Of a stretch of DNA of 32,000 bases, positions 8,465-28,021 are shown piece by piece (positions within the stretch are counted from its first letter, which is position 1; every line of letters starts with the position of its first letter). Where the stretch lies: positions 60,001 through 92,000 of the forward strand of contig JBAZYK010000006.1 of the NCBI GenBank assembly GCA_041659405.1, read 5' to 3'. This stretch comes from Candidatus Altimarinota bacterium. Its GTDB lineage: Bacteria; Patescibacteriota; Gracilibacteria; UBA1369. The notes below the pieces were generated by a model. That model saw only the letters and a list, made by a program, of their open reading frames with translations, had not been told where the DNA came from and made no database searches. The position numbers were made by a program, and so were the translations under genes.

Positions 8465-9223
8465 TTATTTGCGACTATAAACTCGTGAAGAAAAACTTGT
8501 TTGTAAATCCAATTTAAATGGCGTCAAACCCTTACCAACATTTTCTGCAGTCAAAAACACATTCACCAGCGGCTGAAACTGATCACCACTTTTATCCACA
8601 TTCAAAGCGGCATAAGGATTTACCGCCGGATTCAAAACAAAACCCAAATTTTTAATTTTCACATCATTAGACAAAAGATTGCGATAACCATCCTGATCAA
8701 CGCCTTCACTCCCATCTCCACCCTGAGGATATGCATCCTCAGCCTGCCATGAGCCACCACTATCATGCTTGTATTTTCTTACTTGAGCAGTATGTAATGC
8801 TAAATTAAAGCGATAAACTGTTAACTCGGTATTTTCTTTATCGATCAAAGCCAGATAATTTTGCTTGAATTGGCCTGTTATATCCGACTTAACATCAGAA
8901 GGACAAGCTTCCAAATTAGCAGACGGATCCGGATTATTATTATTTTGAGGTTGAAGTTCATAACAATCATAAGCCGGCGAACCCAAACGGGCATCCTGCG
9001 CCAAAGTTTCAAAAAATACACGCAATTCCGAATAGATTTTGCGCACGCCGTTGGCTTGTCTTTGCGATCTAATAATACCCACATAGGACTGCGAAACTAT
9101 CCCCAAAAATACAATAAAAATGGACATACTGATCAAAAGTTCGATCAAAGTGAAGCCTTTTCGACTCTGGTTGGAGCTGGAACTATTTTGTTTTTTGCCA
9201 ACTTTTTTCAGCAAATTCATCAT
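8465..9223 (-). CDS. Type IV pilin-like protein (prepilin, minor-pilin class)
   Basis: Class III signal peptide ...SRKG|FTLIELLISMSIFIVFLG with Glu5. Start set at ATG 9223, preceded by GGAAAGGAGG (SD) and in an ATGA overlap with the upstream gene. Confidence 0.8.
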   Translation of the reverse strand: MMNLLKKVGKKQNSSSSNQSRKGFTLIELLISMSIFIVFLGIVSQSYVGIIRSQRQANGVRKIYSELRVFFETLAQDARLGSPAYDCYELQPQNNNNPDPSANLEACPSDVKSDITGQFKQNYLALIDKENTELTVYRFNLALHTAQVRKYKHDSGGSWQAEDAYPQGGDGSEGVDQDGYRNLLSNDVKIKNLGFVLNPAVNPYAALNVDKSGDQFQPLVNVFLTAENVGKGLTPFKLDLQTSFSSRVYSRK

Positions 9224-13628: not shown

Positions 13629-14693
13629 ATGACGGAAAACGAATTCGAAAAAAATCTGGATACATATCTAAAAAACGGCTCCACCATGATCGTGGGCGTT
13701 TCCGGCGGCCCCGATTCGATCTATTTATTAAAGCGCCTTTTTGACTATTCTCAAAACCACCAACTCAAAATTATTGTTGCCCATGTAAATCATGGTTTGC
13801 GCGGTAAAGAAAATCAGATCGAAGAAAAATTCGTCCAAAATCTGGCAATAAAATATGAATTCCCTTTTGAATCAATCAAACTTCATCTAAAAACCCTGCA
13901 CGGAAAGAAGCCCACTCCGCCCGCTACAAAAAAAGAAACTTCATTCGTGGCAAAATCCCAAAAAAACGGGGAAACCAACGGCAATCTGGAAGAAATCGCC
14001 CGCCAAAAGCGTTACGCCTTTTTTGAAAAATTGCGTCAAAAATATGATGCCGATTACGTTATTGTCGCCCATCACCTTAATGACAATATCGAAACCGCCC
14101 TTTTTAATCTGATCCGCGGAGCCTCTTTTCAGGGCATTAAAGGCATGAAAATGTACAACCACCAAACGCACATTTTAAGACCGCTGCTCAAAATCACCAA
14201 AAAAGAAATTCTTGATTTTCTAAAGAAAAACAAACTTAAATCTCACTTTGATGAAAGCAACAAGGATCTGCGATTTTCCCGCAACCTTCTGCGCCAAAAA
14301 GCCATTCCACTTTTTAATAAAATCAACTCCGGGTTTGAAAAAACTTTCCAGGAAAATCTTCAAAATTTCACCGAAATTGCCGAATTTATTGAAGAAAAAA
14401 GTACAACGTGGCTCCAAAAAAATCTGCAGGATCAACGTTTTCCGCTTACAAAGTTTCTTGAACTCCCCTCGTTCCTCCAAAAAAACATTCTCGTCCAGCT
14501 TTATCAAACAACTTACGGCTCAACCAACAAACTCACACTCCAACAACTTCAGGAAATTTTAAAAGTTTTAAAACTCCAAAAATCCAATCGCAAAAAAGAA
14601 TTTGGCACCCGATTTTTCATTCAAGTCATCAAAAAAAACGAAAGCTCCCCGCGTGAAGTTGAACTCAAATTGAAGCCATTGAAAAAAGCTTAA
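13629..14693 (+). CDS. tilS: tRNA(Ile)-lysidine synthetase
   Basis: PP-loop [18 protein letters not shown] and [11 protein letters not shown] motifs, plus the conserved tilS-ftsH synteny. Confidence 0.88.
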
Positions 14694-14724: not shown

Positions 14725-16638
14725 ATGCCAATGCTTAAAATACAAAACCGAAAACCCGGAAACAGTTTCATTTATTTAATAGTAGCCGCTTTAATAATTG
14801 CCGCCGCCTTCATTATTTTTAGTCCGGGCAGCAGCAACATCAAAAAAATCACCCTGGACCAATTCGTTCAGCAGGCCAAAAGTGGTGAAATCGGAAAAAT
14901 ATCCTTAAGCGATAACAAGCTCAACATCACCAGAATTGATGATACCAAGGAATATACCTATAAAGAAGGAGGTCAAACCATCAGTGATCTTTTAAAAGAC
15001 GTACCGGAACAATCCAAAAAAGATATCCAGATTGATATTCAGGCACCGGACGGCCAGGACTTTTGGCTAAATCTGATCATCAGCATTTTACCCTTCTTAT
15101 TAATAGTTGGATTTTTTGCCTTCATGATGCGCCAGGCGCAAAGCAGCAATAATCAGGCTATGTCTTTTGGTAAAAGCAAAGCCCGCCTTTATGATAAAGA
15201 TAAACAAAAAACCACTTTTCAGGATGTGGCCGGTGCCAAAGAAGCCAAAGAAGAATTGATTGAAATTGTCGATTTCCTTAAAAACCCAACCAAATATACG
15301 CAAATGGGAGCCAAAATTCCTAAAGGTGTACTTTTGGTGGGAGCCCCCGGAACAGGTAAAACTTTGCTCGCCCGCGCAGTTGCCGGTGAAGCCAACGTAC
15401 CTTTCTTTAACATCTCCGGTTCTGAATTTGTAGAAATGTTTGTGGGAGTTGGAGCAAGCCGTGTTCGCGACCTGTTTAAAAAAGCAAAACGCAACGCTCC
15501 ATGTATTATTTTCATTGATGAAATCGATGCCGTTGGCCGCCAGCGCGGAACAGGACTCGGTGGAGGACATGATGAACGTGAACAAACTTTGAATCAGATT
15601 TTGACCGAAATGGATGGTTTTGAAAAAGACACCAATGTTATTGTAATGGCTGCCACAAACCGTCCAGACGTTTTGGATCCGGCGCTTCTTCGCCCGGGTC
15701 GCTTTGATCGTCGCATTGTTGTGGATGTTCCGGACATGGAAGATCGTGAAGCAATTTTAAAGGTTCACGGCCGCAATAAACCTTTGGCAAAAGAGTGTGA
15801 TCTTCTGAAAATTGCTCAACACACTCCTGGTTTTGCCGGTGCCGATCTTGAAAACTTGATGAACGAAGCTGCCATTTTAACCGCTCGCCGTAACAAAAAA
15901 CAGGTAACCATGTCCGAGCTTGAAGAGTCTATTGAAAAAGTTATGATGGGCCCGGAACGCAAATCCCGAGTACTTTCAAAAAAAGAAAAAGAGATCACCG
16001 CTTATCATGAAACAGGTCATGCTTTGGTGGCTCAACTTCTGCCAAATTGCGACCCGGTTCATAAAGTTTCAATCATCTCACGCGGTATGGCTTTGGGTGT
16101 TACCTGGTTCTTGCCAGAAGAAGATAAGCACCTTTATCTTCGCAGCAAATTTGAAGATGAAATGTGTTCACTTTTAGGTGGATATTTATCTGAAATCGCA
16201 ATCTTTGGCGAAATGACCACAGGTGCTTCAAATGACCTTGAAAGAGCAACTCAAATCGCCCGCAACATGGTTACAAAATATGGTATGAGCAGACTTGGCC
16301 CGGTCATTTTTGGTGAGCAGAATCACGAAGTTTTCTTAGGCCGCGATTTTGGCCATGTCAGAAATTACTCAGAAGAAGTTGCTAAAGAAATCGATGAAGA
16401 AGTAAAAGAAATCATCAAAAAAGCCGAAATCAGAACAAAGGATATCATCCAAAAACATTTGGATAAAATCCACATCATTGCCAAGTTTTTGATCGAAAAA
16501 GAAACTATCAACCGTAAACAATTCCTAAAATTCTTTGGTGAAAAAGAAGAAAAAGAAATCGAAAAAAAGAAACGCAAAATGGCCGAAATGAACGAGACCG
16601 AAGCCACCGAAGAAAAAGCAAAAACCACCGAAAATTAA
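14725..16638 (+). CDS. ftsH: ATP-dependent zinc metalloprotease FtsH
   Basis: Two N-terminal TM helices, AAA+ Walker A GAPGTGKT, Walker B IIFIDEID, second region of homology, and the HETGHA zinc site. Confidence 0.97.
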
Positions 16639-16649
16639 AAAAACATCCG

Positions 16650-16729
16650 TGTTCAGTTTATGGAATATTATTTGAACACACAGGGCCCCTACCCCGGATG
16701 TGTTCAAATAATATTCCATAAACTGAACA
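16650..16729. repeat. Palindromic element E1: perfect 31-bp inverted repeat around an 18-nt core
   Basis: Arm tgttcagtttatggaatattatttgaacaca (16650-16680) is the exact reverse complement of 16699-16729. The loop is cagggcccctaccccgga (16681-16698). Confidence 0.95.
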
Positions 16730-16748
16730 ATCATTAATCACTAATTAA

Positions 16749-17252
16749 ATGAGAAAGCTTGTTGCAACAGCTTCTGTTCAAACCCAAAATAAACGTGTTT
16801 CCCCTGCTTCCACACGGAATGCAGCCGGCGCGCCAAGAACGGCTTCAAGAAACGCCATAGTAAGTGGAGCTTCCGGTTCCTCACCTTTTACCAATGCACC
16901 TTTAACCGCAAGCTCGGAAGAAGGCCAGTTGGCCCTGGACGTGTATCAAACTCCTACGGAAATTATAGTCATGGCGCCAATTGCCGGCGTAAAACTTTCC
17001 GATTTGAATGTAACAATGACCGAAGACGTACTGACTATTAAAGGAAATCGTTATCTCGAATTTGATATTCCCGAACAAGACTATTTAACCCAGGAATGTT
17101 TTTGGGGCGACTTCAGCCGATCAATCGTTCTACCGGCATCGGTCGATTCCACCAAAATCAACGCCAGCTTCAAAGACGGCGTCCTAAAAGTCTCAATCCC
17201 CAGAACCGAACCAACAAAAACGAAGATAATACGAATTAAAACCGACTTATAA
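16749..17252 (+). CDS. Small heat-shock protein (Hsp20/alpha-crystallin family)
   Basis: Alpha-crystallin domain: LALDVYQTPTEIIVMAPIAGVKLSDLNVTMTEDVLTIKGNR ... FSRSIVLP...ASFKDGVLKVSIPR. Confidence 0.88.
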   Translation: MRKLVATASVQTQNKRVSPASTRNAAGAPRTASRNAIVSGASGSSPFTNAPLTASSEEGQLALDVYQTPTEIIVMAPIAGVKLSDLNVTMTEDVLTIKGNRYLEFDIPEQDYLTQECFWGDFSRSIVLPASVDSTKINASFKDGVLKVSIPRTEPTKTKIIRIKTDL

Positions 17253-17282
17253 CGAATTATAAAAAAAATAATTATAAGCGTG

Positions 17283-17362
17283 TATTCGGATTGTAAGAAT
17301 ATTTCTGAACACATCCGGGGTAGGGGCCCTGTGTGTGAAGGAATATTGTTACAATCTGAATA
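17283..17362. repeat. Palindromic element E2: same family as E1, core inverted relative to E1
   Basis: 31-nt arms at 17283-17313 and 17332-17362, with 26 of 31 positions complementary. The core tccggggtaggggccctg (17314-17331) is the exact reverse complement of the E1 loop. Confidence 0.9.
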
Positions 17363-17366
17363 CCAC

Positions 17367-17425
17367 CTGAACACAATCCGGGGTAGGGGCCCTGTGTGCG
17401 AAGGGGTACTTCTATATTCTGAACA
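17367..17425. repeat. Half-element E3: core plus right arm, tandem to E2
   Basis: ctgaacaca-a-tccggggtaggggccctg (core 17377-17394), then a 31-nt arm (17395-17425) ending ctgaaca like the E1 and E2 arms. It ends 10 nt before the galU ATG. Confidence 0.85.
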
Positions 17426-17435
17426 CCCCCCTACT

Positions 17436-18302
17436 ATGAAGATTAGAAAAGCTGTTTTCCCCGCCGCCGGTTTCGGCACCCGTTTCCTCCCCGTCACCAA
17501 ATCGCAACCCAAAGAAATGTTGCCGATTGTGGATAAACCGGTCATCCAATATCTGGTTGAAGAAGCCGTTGCGTCCGGAATTGAAGAAATTATTATTGTC
17601 ACCGGCCGCGGTAAACGTTCCATTGAAGATCATTTTGATTATTCTTTCGAGCTTGAGCACACGCTGGTTGAAAAGGGCAAACACTCACTTTTAAAAGAAG
17701 TCCGTGCCATTTCCAAACTGGCCAAGTTTATCTATGTGCGCCAGCCTATGCCGCTTGGTGATGGCCACGCCATCCTTTGCGCCAAGGAAGTTGTTGGCAA
17801 TGAACCTTTCGCCGTTCTTTTTGGAGATGACATTGTGGATTACAAAGTTCCGGCCTTAAAACAGCTGATTGATGTTTATAATAAGACCGGCTGCAGCGTC
17901 CTTGGGCTCCAAGAAATCGACCCAAAAGAAAGTGAAAACTACGGCATGATCAAAGCAAAAAAAGGTTCAAGCCATGATCGTCTATGTGAAATTGAAAAGC
18001 TTGTTGAAAAACCAAGTCCGGAAAAAGCTCCTTCCAATCTTGGAATTATCGGAAAATATATAGTAACACCGGAAATCATTGAGGCTCTGGAAAAGGCCAA
18101 ACCAAGCCACGGAGGTGAAATAAGACTCATTGACGGGTTTTCCCAACTCCTCAAAAAACAAAAAATTTACGGCTACGAAATCATGGGAAAAAGATATGAC
18201 ACCGGCACCAAAATGGGGCTCATCACCGCCACCATCGATTTTGCCCTAAAGCGCAAAGACCTTGGCCCGGAACTTAGAAAATACCTAAAAAGCCTAGAGT
18301 AA
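17436..18302 (+). CDS. galU: UTP-glucose-1-phosphate uridylyltransferase
   Basis: MKIRKAVFPAAGFGTRFLPVTKSQPKEMLPIVDKPVIQY, VEKP and other GalU blocks. Start moved to ATG 17436 because the track's longer ORF translates the E2/E3 repeats. Confidence 0.9.
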   Translation: MKIRKAVFPAAGFGTRFLPVTKSQPKEMLPIVDKPVIQYLVEEAVASGIEEIIIVTGRGKRSIEDHFDYSFELEHTLVEKGKHSLLKEVRAISKLAKFIYVRQPMPLGDGHAILCAKEVVGNEPFAVLFGDDIVDYKVPALKQLIDVYNKTGCSVLGLQEIDPKESENYGMIKAKKGSSHDRLCEIEKLVEKPSPEKAPSNLGIIGKYIVTPEIIEALEKAKPSHGGEIRLIDGFSQLLKKQKIYGYEIMGKRYDTGTKMGLITATIDFALKRKDLGPELRKYLKSLE

Positions 18303-20097: not shown

Positions 20098-20712
20098 GCT
20101 CTACCAGTGAATGATCGCTGCAGCTTTCTTTTCTAAAAAAAAGCATGAACGAAAAAGCTTGAAGCAAAGCGTGAATTATTTTGGGATTGGGTCTCGTGGG
20201 TCCCAATCCCAAAATAATTCCGCTACCGCGAAAAGCTTTTAAGTGAATACAATATAGGGAAAGAGAGCACCACGAGAGAAAACCGTCAGGTTGTCTCTCG
20301 TGAACTGCAGAGGAAAGTCCGAGCACCATGGAACAGGATGGCTTCTAACGGAAGCGGCTCAGCATGAAAGTGTTGAGTACGGAAAGTACCACAGAGACTA
20401 TGAAAGCTGCGCGCAAGCGTAGCCAAAGGTGAAAAGCCCAGTCGTAAAGCGTAAAATTCCAGGCCGCGGCGCAAGCCAATAAGCCAGAATGTAACGCCAG
20501 ACAGGGCGCCCCTCGGTGACGAGGAGACGTGGCAAACCCTATCCGGTGCAAGGTGGGATGGAAGAAAAAGATCAAGTTTTGTTCCAAAACCTTTTTCTGC
20601 CCACCGCACGATTTCATAGGCAACTATGAAACAAGAGAGATGATCATACTTTGTTTATGCGCCGCAAGGTGCATCAACAGAGAACAAAACTCGGCTTATG
20701 ATCTGGTAGAGC
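20098..20712 (+). ncRNA. rnpB: RNase P RNA (bacterial, type A-like specificity domain), unusually long
   Basis: GAGGAAAGTCCGAGC (20310-20324, CR-I) and ACAGAGAACAAAACTCGGCTTAT (20678-20699, CR-V). Also CGCGCAAGCG, AAGGTGAAAAG, CGTAAAGCG and GGCAAACCCTATCCGGTGCAAGG blocks. The 10-bp terminal helix pairs GCTCTACCAG (20098-20107) with CTGGTAGAGC (20703-20712). Ends are approximate. Confidence 0.85.
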
Positions 20713-20848
20713 AATATTGAAAACCAAAAATTATCGCAAAATCCATCCCCATCCGCTATACTTGCGAAGGTTTTTGAATTGCGCGACTTTGCTGCACGAC
20801 CATGCCCGCAACTTTCTCGCAAACTCCCACGCACCCTCACACCCGCAC

Positions 20849-23600: not shown

Positions 23601-23822
23601 AAAAATTAAATTAAAATATAGAAAATTTAATACAAGGGTATATTCTATCTAATCCCGTGATTTTGTCAATGTTTCCGCCGGAAAATCAACGCAAAAACAT
23701 GGATGAACAGGTACTTTCAACAACACTACTTGAATTAGCCATTGCCCATTTACTTTAAGCCAAAAATCTTTTAGACTCTTAAACGCGCTTTTAGCATAAA
23801 ACTAATCATTAATTGAACTCCC

Positions 23823-26567
23823 GTGATCCACAAAATTATCAACAAACTTCTGGGCGACCAAAACGAAAAAGAGCTCAAAAAGCTTTGGCCTTTGGTTGCC
23901 AAGGTTAACGCCGTCTATGAAGAGTACGAGAAAAATCTGCCGGAATCCGACATCCCTAAAAAAACCGAGGAATTCAAAACTCGCCTAAAAAACGGAGAAA
24001 CTCTGGATCAAATTATGCCGGAAGCATTCGCTTTGGTTAAACATGCCTGCAAAAAACTCATTGGCAAAAAATGGCTTGTGCGTGGCAACGAAACCACCTG
24101 GGACATGGTTCCTTTTGACGTTCAAATTCTTGGTGGAATCGTTCTTCATCAGGGCCGCATCGCCGAAATGAAAACGGGTGAAGGTAAAACTCTGGTTTGT
24201 ACCATGCCGGTTTATCTTAATGCTCTTGCCGGAAAAGGCGTGCACGTTGTTACGGTTAATGACTATCTTGCTCATCGCGATTCCGAATGGATGGGCGGTC
24301 TTTTTAAATTCCTTGGTCTAACCGTTGGAATTGTTGTGCATGAACAGCCGCGTGAAGCCAAAAAAGAGGCTTACAACGCCGACATCACTTATGGCACAAA
24401 CAACGAATTTGGTTTTGATTATCTGCGTGATAACATGGCGCAAAGCCAGGAAAATATCGCTCAGCGTGAGCTTTCTTATGCCATTGTGGATGAAGTGGAT
24501 TCCATTTTGATTGATGAGGCCAGAACGCCGTTAATTATTTCCGCTCCGGCCGAGGAATCGACTTCCAAATATGTTCGTTATTCTCAGCTTGTACGCAATC
24601 TTTTGGAAGTAACCGATTATGTTATTGATGAAAAGCAAAAAACCGCAAGTTTGACCGAAGAAGGTATCGCCAAAATGGAAGGTCTTCTGGGGGTTGATAA
24701 CATTTATACCGATGCCGGATTTAGTGAAGTACATCACCTGGAACAGGCGCTCAAAGCTCAAACAGTTTATAAAAATGACATCGATTATGTGGTAAAAGAT
24801 GGTGAAATTTTGATTGTTGATGAGTTTACCGGCCGCATTATGCCGGGTCGTCGTTACTCGGATGGTCTGCATCAGGCAATTGAAGCCAAAGAAGGTGTGG
24901 AAGTTAAGCGTGAAAGCCGCACACTCGCCACCATTACTTTTCAAAATTATTTCCGTCTCTTTAAAAAATTGGCGGGCATGACCGGTACAGCACTAACAGA
25001 AGCCGAAGAATTCCTCCAAATTTACCGACTTGAAACAATTGTGATTCCAACTCACCATGCGGTTCAAAGGTTGGATGGAGCCGACATGATCTACAAAAAT
25101 CAGAAAGGCAAATACATGGCTGTCGCTAAAAAGGTTAAGGAATTATACGAAAAAGGTCAGCCGGTTTTGATTGGTACGATTTCGATTGAGAAATCCGAAA
25201 TCATGAACAAATTGTTGCAAATGGAAGGCGTTCCGCACAATGTTTTGAATGCCAAAAATCACGAACGCGAAGCCGAAATCGTGGCAAAGGCAGGCCAAAA
25301 AGGAGCCGTTACCATTGCCACCAACATGGCCGGTCGTGGAACGGATATTAAACTTGGTGAAGGTGTTACAGATTTGGGTGGTTTAGTGGTGATTGCCACC
25401 GAGCGTCATGAAGCCCGCCGCATCGATAACCAGTTGCGTGGTCGTAGTGGTCGTCAGGGTGACCCGGGTGAAAGCCAATTTTTTGTTTCGATGGAGGATG
25501 ATTTGATGCGTTTATTTGGTTCCGATCGCATTCAAAAAGTTATGGAAGGTTTAAATATGCCCGACGACATGCCAATTCAAAATAAGTGGATCAGCAATTC
25601 GATTGAAACTGCCCAAAAAAGCGTGGAAGGCCGCAACTTTGATATTCGTAAACATATTGTTGAATACGACGACGTAATGAACAAACATCGTGAAATTATT
25701 TATTCCCGCCGTCACAAAGTTTTGCAGAGCGACAACATCAAAAACGACATTATAATTCTGCTTGAAAAAGAAATTGAAAGTCTGGTTTTGCGTAACCGTA
25801 AAGAAGAAGCCGATCGTGACGAAAGCAAATATGATTACGAAAAAATGCTGGAAGAAATAAACGCACTTCATAAAGATTCGGTTTATCCGCTTTCAATTGA
25901 CCTTCTTTCCAAAGCGGACGATCAGGAAGATTTGATCGAAGCCGTAAAATTGTACTTCTTCAAGGAGTACGAAGAAAAAGAAAAAATGTTGAAAGATTCT
26001 TCAATTATGCGCCAAATTGAACGCGGCATTTATTTGAATGTGATCGATACTTTTTGGATGGAGCACATCGACAACATGACCCATTTGCGTGAAGGTGTAG
26101 CCCTGCGCGGTTATGGCCAGCGCGACCCGTTGGTTGAATACAAAAAGGAAGCTTTCAGCATGTTCAGCAAGATGATGGTTGGAATTCAGGCAAATACGGT
26201 AACTACAATTTTCAAATTGAATTTAAAAGCTCAACTACCGCAAGAAATGCTGCAAGTTGGCATGGCTCCAACAGTTCAAATGTTTACGAATGAAAACCAG
26301 ATTGAATCGGTACTTTCCGGCGATCATGGCGGCGGCATGGTTTTAGGTGAGAGCACGAATACGGGTTTTGGCGCAGGTAGTGGCGCAAACATGAACTCAG
26401 GCTTTAGCGCGAACGGTGGCGCGGGCACGGGCGCAAGCGGCAATCCGACCATAATCAAAGCCGATTCAGCCCCAGCCGGAAGCCACAAACCGGAAATCGG
26501 CCGCAACGATCTATGCACCTGCGGAAGCGGAAAAAAATATAAGAAATGCCATCAGTTAGCCAAATGA
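23823..26567 (+). CDS. secA: Preprotein translocase ATPase SecA
   Basis: GTG start. MKTGEGKTLV Walker A, VDEVDSILIDEARTPLIIS, TNMAGRGTDIKLG, and the C-terminal zinc motif CTCGSGKKYKKCH. Confidence 0.97.
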   Translation: MIHKIINKLLGDQNEKELKKLWPLVAKVNAVYEEYEKNLPESDIPKKTEEFKTRLKNGETLDQIMPEAFALVKHACKKLIGKKWLVRGNETTWDMVPFDVQILGGIVLHQGRIAEMKTGEGKTLVCTMPVYLNALAGKGVHVVTVNDYLAHRDSEWMGGLFKFLGLTVGIVVHEQPREAKKEAYNADITYGTNNEFGFDYLRDNMAQSQENIAQRELSYAIVDEVDSILIDEARTPLIISAPAEESTSKYVRYSQLVRNLLEVTDYVIDEKQKTASLTEEGIAKMEGLLGVDNIYTDAGFSEVHHLEQALKAQTVYKNDIDYVVKDGEILIVDEFTGRIMPGRRYSDGLHQAIEAKEGVEVKRESRTLATITFQNYFRLFKKLAGMTGTALTEAEEFLQIYRLETIVIPTHHAVQRLDGADMIYKNQKGKYMAVAKKVKELYEKGQPVLIGTISIEKSEIMNKLLQMEGVPHNVLNAKNHEREAEIVAKAGQKGAVTIATNMAGRGTDIKLGEGVTDLGGLVVIATERHEARRIDNQLRGRSGRQGDPGESQFFVSMEDDLMRLFGSDRIQKVMEGLNMPDDMPIQNKWISNSIETAQKSVEGRNFDIRKHIVEYDDVMNKHREIIYSRRHKVLQSDNIKNDIIILLEKEIESLVLRNRKEEADRDESKYDYEKMLEEINALHKDSVYPLSIDLLSKADDQEDLIEAVKLYFFKEYEEKEKMLKDSSIMRQIERGIYLNVIDTFWMEHIDNMTHLREGVALRGYGQRDPLVEYKKEAFSMFSKMMVGIQANTVTTIFKLNLKAQLPQEMLQVGMAPTVQMFTNENQIESVLSGDHGGGMVLGESTNTGFGAGSGANMNSGFSANGGAGTGASGNPTIIKADSAPAGSHKPEIGRNDLCTCGSGKKYKKCHQLAK

Positions 26568-27834: not shown

Positions 27835-28021
27835 CCAACCAACAAGCCTTTTACGGCTTATTTAAGCTGTGCTGTTATAATTCAGCAGTTTGTTCCTACA
27901 TCAGATATTGGTTTTTCTAGAATTGTAACAGTGAGTAAAGAACCATCTTTTAAACGACCCAAAAAGAAAAGAAAGGATCAAATCCAATTGGCAACCTCAG
28001 AACCAGCTTGGAGTTTTTAGA

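Follow-up and report, generated by a model that had tools for sequence, protein, structure and literature searches.

A dispersed palindromic repeat around hsp20 in a Gracilibacteria genome, probably a lineage-specific MITE-like mobile element

Introduction

Why should a single heat-shock gene be bracketed by inverted copies of one and the same palindrome? This question is raised by a stretch of 32,000 nucleotides from a Candidatus Altimarinota bacterium of the Gracilibacteria (assembly GCA_041659405.1, contig JBAZYK010000006.1, positions 60,001 to 92,000 of the forward strand; this whole stretch is called the window in the following), in which the gene hsp20 is preceded by a perfect palindrome (E1) and followed by an imperfect (E2) and a truncated (E3) relative of it. 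The first-pass annotation of this locus, made from the letters alone, suggested that the three could be 80-bp members of a structured repeat family resembling miniature transposable elements with inverted repeats (MITEs) or REP sequences, or else a conserved protein- or RNA-recognition site on a hairpin loop, and proposed either cassette-like mobility of hsp20 or shared regulation as the meaning of the bracket. Patescibacteria (candidate phyla radiation, CPR) have small, streamlined genomes in which, according to the usual description, repeats and mobile DNA are scarce, and literature searches found no MITE- or REP-like family described in this group. Here, we conclude that E1–E3 are probably copies of a lineage-specific, non-coding, palindromic mobile repeat of MITE-like character, whereas hsp20 itself is a resident gene.

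Structure of the Repeat

The locus has the gene order tilS (13629–14693), ftsH (14725–16638), E1, hsp20, E2/E3 and galU, E1 being placed after the stop of ftsH (16638) and before the start of hsp20 (16749). The window corresponds to part of the 110.5-kb contig k141_167353 of ENA ERZ27249449. The features on which the following discussion relies are:

16650–16729, no strand assigned: E1, complete palindrome (31-nt arms, perfect; 18-nt loop)
16681–16698, minus strand: core copy 1, the loop of E1, reading TCCGGGGTAGGGGCCCTG on this strand
16730–16738, plus strand: outer extension ATCATTAAT following E1, from direct reading of the sequences
16749–17252, plus strand: hsp20 (167 aa, PF00011), resident gene outside the element
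17260–17280, plus strand: A-rich left leader TAAAAAAAATAATTATAAGCG, from the alignment with a second locus (see below)
17283–17362, plus strand: E2, full imperfect palindrome composed of arms and core copy 2
17314–17331, plus strand: core copy 2, TCCGGGGTAGGGGCCCTG, in E2
17347–17355, plus strand: TGTTACAAT in the right arm of E2, candidate outward extended -10 facing galU, a putative promoter judged from sequence
17367–17425, plus strand: E3, 5'-truncated copy composed of stub, core copy 3 and right arm
17377–17394, plus strand: core copy 3, TCCGGGGTAGGGGCCCTG, in E3

The 31-nt arms of E1 are 100% complementary to each other around the 18-nt loop, and E1 is the longest hairpin of the window. 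In E2, 26 of the 31 arm pairs are Watson-Crick, two are G.T and three are mismatches, while E3 consists of a 10-nt left stub (17367–17376), the core (17377–17394) and a 31-nt right arm (17395–17425). Three occurrences of the core TCCGGGGTAGGGGCCCTG were counted in the window as compared to 0.01 expected, a number reached in none of 100 shuffles. Together with the inner arms the core forms a perfect 31-nt inverted repeat (GAACACA-core-TGTGTTCA; 16676–16706 and 17306–17336) shared by E1 and E2 at a distance of 599 nt. The anatomy drawn up in the first-pass annotation was largely reproduced in this way, including the coordinates and perfect arms of E1, the 26 complementary positions of E2 (to which the two G.T pairs can be added), the core plus single arm of E3 (now with its stub), the threefold core with its opposite orientation in E1, and the position of hsp20 between E1 and E2/E3. 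The figure of 80 bp is accurate for the palindrome as delimited there, but the repeat unit is longer, as it includes the A-rich left leader and, in some copies, an outer palindromic extension (ATTAATAAT...ATYATTAAT), giving unit sizes of 80–125 nt. A full copy is composed of an A-rich left leader and two AT-rich arms (about 31–40 nt) that pair around an invariant GC-rich 18-nt core.

The loop of E1 is flipped relative to that of the other four copies known by now (E4 and E5 are introduced below). The orientation ascribed to E1 as a whole is judged from its loop; since the A-run on its left and the ATCATTAAT extension on its right are placed as in E5, which has ATTATTAAT at the position equivalent to ATCATTAAT, and since its arms form a perfect palindrome, a flip of the loop inside the palindrome would be as likely as an inverted insertion of the entire element.

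The elements are non-coding. None of their reading frames found a match at E <= 10 among 5.8 billion proteins. The genes of the locus can be read with the standard genetic code, which yields intact long open reading frames. A possible N-terminal extension of GalU had to be considered, because the frame is open through E2/E3 and a metagenome gene call begins galU at GTG 17280, reading both elements in frame as 52 extra codons that contain two repeats of EHIRGRGPVCEG, 21 codons apart. This extension was rejected: it is without homologue, the NCBI annotation of 288 aa matches a galU start at ATG 17436, and relatives begin GalU at the same MKIRKAVFPAAG. A 180-aa antisense open reading frame (17081–17623) is likewise open across both E2 and E3.

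Dispersal and Insertion Polymorphism

The most informative observation is that the repeat also occurs elsewhere. Two more copies, E4 and E5, were found on the same contig about 1 kb before the window start (positions 8740–8917 of the flanking record L022, cores at 8789 and 8850), with an ftsQ-like (POTRA) gene on one side and a DUF1290 gene on the other. Overall, five cores, identical throughout E1–E5, are distributed over two loci about 17 kb apart within the roughly 58 kb of contig (window plus flanks) that were examined for copies and gene content. The first-pass statement that there are no other copies accordingly holds inside the window but not beyond it, and the same applies to the rule that all arms begin with TGTG next to the core, as the right arm of E5 begins with TGTA. 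No copies other than those at these two loci were present in the 58 kb, 6 kb of which were added by an extension that contributed no new copy, and an nhmmer profile of the five copies detected no degenerate copies in the window, its flanks or the relatives' loci. Because the same core recurs at the ftsQ-like/DUF1290 locus, the family is dispersed and not tied to hsp20; this also speaks for a family rather than for the local duplication that the first-pass annotation had named as the alternative.

Alignment revealed the hsp20-galU and ftsQ-DUF1290 intergenic regions to be nearly identical from AATTATAAGCG through the full palindrome (E4 being nearly identical to E2) and the stub to the end of the second core, including the A-rich leader (at the second locus TAAAAAAATAACAATTATAAGCG), while the last arm (E5 versus E3) falls to roughly two-thirds identity as judged by eye. 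Each of these two regions contains a composite of a full element joined to a 5'-truncated one, and the core is the breakpoint of similarity between the copies.

Hsp20 homologues are abundant in Patescibacteria, which allowed for a comparison of the locus across relatives. Five related lineages (L020, L021, L031/L032, L033/L034 and L035) are without the element at the hsp20 locus, with gaps of 5–94 nt; hsp20 adjoins ftsH and/or galU in all five, the three genes stand together in L021, L031/L032, L033 and L035, and L031 is syntenic over about 20 kb. Among the relatives examined, elements at this locus occur only in the closest one, L019 (Hsp20 95% identical), in the same arrangement. Because relatives keep ftsH-hsp20-galU without elements, hsp20 is resident and the elements moved in around it. 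The first-pass annotation had suggested to check whether hsp20 is absent or differently flanked in close relatives; it instead occupies the same place in the element-free genomes, which speaks against cassette-like mobility.

The second locus provides an empty site. In strain L039, whose ftsQ is 90% identical to that of the window strain at the nucleotide level, the ftsQ-DUF1290 gap is only 12 nt long (TAAccatcaataattATG) and empty, yet the element is present in the same gap of strain L038, although the ftsQ genes of L038 and L039 are 97.5% identical. The L038 locus reads TAAtcatc, then TAAAAAAATAAAAAAAATTAATAATAAATGT, then an arm, and the contig ends at the core. It includes the leader portion TAAAAAAATAA, which is missing from the empty site of L039, and its left side carries ATTAATAAT, the reverse complement of the E1-type outer extension. 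Because the left arm in L038 is the reverse complement of the right arm of E5 in the window strain (roughly 90% by eye), L038 possesses a full E5-type palindrome, the left arm of which is replaced in the window strain by E4 and an 11-nt remnant. The tetranucleotide CATC adjoins the element on its left side in L038 and on its right side in the window strain, and the empty site has it a single time; it may represent a 4-bp target duplication. The assembly breaks off at a core or directly beside one in contigs L019, L023 and L038, which is short-read assembly behaviour typical of repeats.

Two observations touch the same neighbourhood. The gap between MgtC and the ftsQ-like gene (L022 7687–7806, outside the window) comprises 120 nt with two short GC-rich hairpins (gcccaccctcaagtgggc and gtcccgcaagcgggac) in the window strain and only 33 nt in L038, a second, unrelated small-hairpin insertion/deletion polymorphism. 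Moreover, L038 has an extra 207-aa gene between a fumarase gene and a 52-aa gene.

Maintenance of the Hairpin

When the arm pairs of E1 and E2 are compared, 16 are unchanged, ten have changed on both sides and still pair, two are now G.T and three are broken, although shifts in the alignment could account for some of the AT/TA flips at the AATATT centre. Because of these ten compensatory pair changes, the hairpin is regarded as maintained, and the earlier impression of a conserved core with arms drifting by partly compensatory changes is borne out, the core being invariant in all five copies. The predicted RNA folds are correspondingly stable: E1 reaches -50.2 kcal/mol on the plus strand (z = -11 versus shuffled sequences) and -56.4 kcal/mol on the minus strand, E2+E3 reach -63.1 (z = -6) and -43.9 kcal/mol, respectively, and E4+E5 -62.1 kcal/mol (z = -6.9). 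The strand carrying UCCGGGGUAGGGGCCCUG (UCCGGGG...) is more stable by 6–19 kcal/mol; four of the five copies have it as the sense strand of their neighbouring genes, the E1 loop being opposite. On this strand, six further pairs are predicted within the core (CGGGGU opposite GCCCUG, two of the pairs being G.U), which close an AGGG tetraloop, and the wobbles of the arms are likewise G.U.

Adjacent to E1, the first 49 nt of hsp20 (16749–16797, TCTGTTCAAACCCAAAATAAACGTG) are identical in the window strain and L019 before the two diverge abruptly. This segment loosely resembles the right arm of E1, and its constraint may be due to translation initiation or to pairing with E1.

Relation to Known Repeat Families

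Various features are shared with classical MITEs such as RUP, Nezha and ERIC/IRU, which are non-autonomous, intergenic, dispersed, bounded by terminal inverted repeats and variable in presence from strain to strain. The elements described here are small and non-coding, have terminal inverted repeats (100% in E1, 26/31 in E2), occur in several dispersed copies (five cores, two loci), and are polymorphic in presence and absence with an identifiable empty site. They differ from classical MITEs in lacking a known parent insertion sequence with matching ends, in having a centre that is better conserved than the termini, and in bearing an A-rich leader on the left side only.

The Correia elements of Neisseria (CREE/NEMIS) are alike in their small size (about 100–150 bp), their lack of coding capacity and a palindromic build that combines long inverted repeats with a conserved centre, in their intergenic insertion near gene starts and insertion polymorphism, and in co-transcription with their neighbours, which we infer for the present case. 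They are unlike in sequence, belong to a different phylum, and have a TA target duplication and an IHF site, neither of which is seen here; the termini in our copies read TGTTCAG...CTGAACA, unlike the 26-bp inverted repeat of the Neisseria type, and have no flanking TA duplication. Furthermore, the invariant part is here the 18-nt GC-rich apical core, while the arms vary by compensatory change. REP/BIME sequences and the REPINs associated with RAYT (Enterobacteria, Pseudomonas, Stenotrophomonas SMAG) are likewise extragenic palindromes between co-directional genes that often occur in pairs and form RNA hairpins, in their case stabilising the upstream mRNA, and GTAG is also part of our core (GGGGTAGGGG). 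However, REPs span 20–40 nt with GTAG at the 5' foot, whereas the present hairpin measures at least 80 nt with arms of 31–40 nt (31 nt in the window copies) and GTAG at core positions 7–10 in the apical loop; in REPINs, moreover, the paired REPs are conserved and the spacer varies, while here the loop is the conserved part. Integron attC sites have in common with our elements that an imperfect palindrome folds into a hairpin at the flank of a single gene, and that structure is conserved more than sequence. In contrast to these, there is no intI in the 58 kb and no co-oriented cassette array, but housekeeping genes in fixed synteny, and ACTGAAC/GTTCAGT each miss RYYYAAC/GTTRRRY (R''/R') by one base. 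Because defining features looked for here are missing, the element stands outside the Correia, REP/RAYT, ERIC and attC families. A CRISPR-like array was dismissed, as there are only two to three units whose "spacers" are the arms, and so was a DNA uptake sequence, the elements being far too sparse and never located inside genes.

Rfam searches at gathering and permissive thresholds returned no family but only generic sub-threshold matches to microRNA hairpins. Neither the core nor a degenerate pattern was found in viral contigs, and blastn of the E2+E3 region against phages and plasmids gave no match. A degenerate scan of metagenomes (GAACACA-N3-4-GGGGTAGGGG-N5-TGT) recovered one conserved hairpin family on four JGI metagenome contigs:

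L027, 1876–1903: metagenome hairpin block
L028, 766–793: metagenome hairpin block
L029, 3295–3322: metagenome hairpin block
L030, 7081–7108: metagenome hairpin block

The block measures about 110–250 nt and ends in the hairpin GCGGAACACAA-GAGGGGTAGGGGTGAA-TTGTGTTCCGC, the stem of which is extended by one compensatory G-C to A-T change. It is found once per contig next to variable neighbours (DUF4209, Fic, an unknown 561-aa protein, mreB), has no Rfam match, and has GAACACA, GGGGTAGGGG and TGTGTTC in common with the core region of E1–E5. We do not consider it a relative, since the search pattern forced most of the likeness and since it has other flanks and neighbours and is single-copy per contig. 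Possible identities are an unannotated small RNA and a mobile element's end.

Competing Explanations

Several points weigh against the interpretation as a MITE-like mobile repeat. Outside the contig, the exact 18-mer core had 17 single matches in 185,579 reference genomes, which is about the number expected by chance, none of them with ACA/TGTG flanks, and a 22-mer core query in JGI metagenomes had no match at all. Neither a transposase nor a RAYT or recombinase is found among the called genes of the 58 kb (Pfam lists), the possible CATC duplication is seen on one side only in each strain, and no target duplication is evident around E1 and E2+E3. A sigma-70 scan of positions 16300–17800 detected no full -35/-10 promoter and no canonical intrinsic terminator. 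Classical MITEs are, moreover, best conserved at their termini, whereas here the centre is invariant and the arms drift. Most strikingly, orthologous copies are hardly diverged: between the window strain and L019, 36/166 third-codon positions of hsp20 and 27/145 of galU differ, as compared to E2, linker and E3 with 143/143 identical positions and the right half of E1 plus the gap to hsp20 with 62/63. The chance of 0/143 changes is about 1e-14 at a 20% third-position rate and about 4e-6 at the overall coding rate of 8.4%. By comparison, sister strains are 24–95% identical in ordinary intergenic regions, with the longest perfect runs (about 50–60 nt) at promoters and terminators. Because a neutral selfish insertion should have diverged, this excess, which is drawn from a single genome pair (window strain and L019), points to a function at the level of the host or a very recent sweep.

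Such a function is the essence of an alternative in which the elements are a cis-regulatory device of the host, the loop motif being presented on a hairpin to an RNA- or DNA-binding protein as part of a small regulon or as operon punctuation, and retained by purifying selection rather than by mobility. The near-identity to L019 in the face of about 20% third-codon divergence is in keeping with it, as are the core kept in 5/5 copies while the arms co-vary, the G.U-dependent strand asymmetry that favours the sense RNA, and the fact that each locus ends with a copy 10–19 nt upstream of the next start codon; four metagenome contigs with GGGGTAGGGG in an 18-nt loop closed by GAACACA/TGTGTTC would also fit, although the search pattern imposed most of this likeness and a single independent match is close to what chance would give. 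However, the element is missing from all but the closest relatives, its presence differs between strains that are 97.5% identical in ftsQ, the flanking genes (hsp20, galU, DUF1290) are functionally unrelated, no Rfam family matches, and the conservation comes from one genome pair. We regard this alternative as improbable. The narrower version of an hsp20-specific heat-shock element, that is, an RNA thermometer or an operator of the CIRCE, HAIR or ROSE kind, owes its appeal to the position of the elements between the heat-shock genes ftsH and hsp20 and immediately upstream of the latter, and the first-pass annotation had considered shared regulation in view of inverted copies around a single stress gene. 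Yet the same composite stands between the non-stress ftsQ-like and DUF1290 genes, the relatives' hsp20 loci are without it, a hairpin of -50 kcal/mol that excludes the start codon cannot melt at physiological temperatures, no Rfam thermometer matches, and neither a CIRCE (TTAGCACTC-N9-GAGTGCTAA) nor a HAIR consensus is found at the locus. This version is almost certainly wrong and effectively refuted by the second locus together with the element-free orthologous loci. A sigma-32-type promoter across the E1 core was rejected as well, its -10 fit being poor and its orientation not kept in the other copies.

A further possibility is that the core is the site of a site-specific recombinase or of a hairpin-recognising HUH enzyme, so that E1 and E2 would render hsp20 invertible and thus phase-variable and, more generally, the cores would act as crossover points that shuffle flanking modules. 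As in invertons, inverted repeats (31 nt, perfect, 599 nt apart) bracket the hsp20 segment, and short inverted repeats around an asymmetric invariant spacer resemble the layout of a recombination site; the two loci cease to be similar precisely at the second core, what precedes the core on the left at the ftsQ-DUF1290 locus is wholly different in the two strains (E5 left arm in L038, E4 plus stub in the window strain), and the E1 loop is flipped relative to the other four copies. On the other hand, hsp20 has the same orientation in both genomes compared (window contig and L019), no integrase, resolvase, Y1 transposase or other recombinase is present among the called genes of the 58 kb, the 18-nt spacer far exceeds known tyrosine and serine recombinase sites, and homologous recombination at the only stretch common to all copies would explain the breakpoints equally well. 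This scenario strikes us as quite unlikely, and hardly more can be said for its specific formulation as a loop-specified recombination module, in which the invariant core at the hairpin tip would serve both as recombinase or HUH recognition and crossover site and hsp20 would be invertible. Summed up, hsp20 mobility, heat-shock control of hsp20 and hsp20 inversion are unsupported, whereas the second intergenic locus, the element-free orthologous loci, the empty site and the compensatory changes uphold the earlier proposal of a MITE/REP-like structured repeat family and make a MITE-like mobile repeat the probable identity of E1–E3.

Possible Effects on Neighbouring Genes

While the anatomy and behaviour of the repeat are MITE-like, its mode of action is probably closest to that of the Correia elements of Neisseria and of enterobacterial REP/ERIC sequences, by analogy. 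REP, ERIC and Correia hairpins act via RNase III cleavage or protection and via 3'-end stabilisation. Copies of such a MITE-like repeat probably insert in the very short gaps between co-directional operon genes; with two insertions flanking hsp20 (E1 and the E2+E3 composite), the bracket is then an accident of insertion. Recombination between copies at the conserved core probably gave rise to the composites. Because the sense strand has no U-tract after the hairpins and no canonical terminator was detected, read-through of the elements is probable; they would then fold in the operon transcript into hairpins of -50 to -63 kcal/mol. These may act as intercistronic punctuation, either as targets of double-strand RNases or as blocks to 3'-exonucleases, and would presumably uncouple the stability of the ftsH, hsp20 and galU messages. 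On the antisense strand, the complement of the leader is a U-rich tract after the hairpin, which could stop antisense transcription.

The elements may also restart transcription. For CREE, the creation of outward promoters and binding or cutting by RNase III are reported (PMC2649163). The motif TGTTACAAT in the right arm of E2 is also present in E4, and its TG arises from one conserved G-G mismatch of the stem (arm pair 15). A loose scan for TGnTAnWWT gave nine intergenic matches 22–40 nt upstream of a start codon on this contig and many more inside genes, while the strict pattern TGnTA[T/C]AAT has about eleven matches in roughly 100 kb scanned, most of them in an intergenic promoter position. 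Matching the extended -10 type of this genome, TGTTACAAT in E2 and E4 may restart transcription of galU and the DUF1290 gene, respectively, and the resulting transcripts would have a 5' leader beginning with the E3 or E5 hairpin. In addition, the right arm of E3 has a -10-like TATATT (17413–17418), 17 nt before the galU ATG.

With regard to gene expression in general, almost no gene in the window and its flanks (L018, L022, L025) has a Shine-Dalgarno sequence, and many genes are preceded by TGnTAtAAT at 22–40 nt, which implies short leaders and extended -10-dependent promoters. In the gap between two convergent genes (window 27835–28021), two extended -10 motifs (TGTTATAAT on the plus strand, 27872–27880, and TGTTACAAT on the minus strand, 27912–27920) face each other about 40 nt apart. 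This gap is without a called gene and possibly harbours an unannotated small RNA or small open reading frame.

Other Features of the Window

The second-longest hairpin of the window (20173–20220) has perfect arms of 19 bp (GAATTATTTTGGGATTGGG) and a loop of 10 nt. Its sequence bears no relation to E1–E5, and it is placed upstream of the RNase P RNA gene (20282–20714) at a distance of about 60 nt. Upstream of secA (GTG at 23823), GCATAAAACTAATCATTAATTGAAC (23795–23822) resembles the outer end of the E1 right arm plus extension (CCATAAACTGAACAATCATTAATCAC). It may be what is left of a decayed element at its end or a motif shared by promoters or leaders, or the likeness may be due to chance, the DNA being AT-rich.

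Conclusions

The repeat is dispersed and insertion-polymorphic, its hairpin is kept by compensatory change, and its core is both invariant and the breakpoint between exchanged modules. Three traits are unusual for an element that is probably MITE-like, namely an invariant centre with drifting arms, module exchange at the core, and orthologous copies that are more conserved than synonymous sites. From a practical point of view, short-read assemblies come apart at the core of these repeats, and a gene caller was led by them to a false extension of galU by 52 codons. More generally, the locus provides an example of a repeat family inserting into operon gaps of 5–50 nt in Patescibacteria. If the elements are read through and folded, they would alter ftsH-hsp20-galU expression in one lineage only and, if this holds true, would offer a natural experiment on how an operon is rewired in a symbiont-like bacterium that has not been cultivated.

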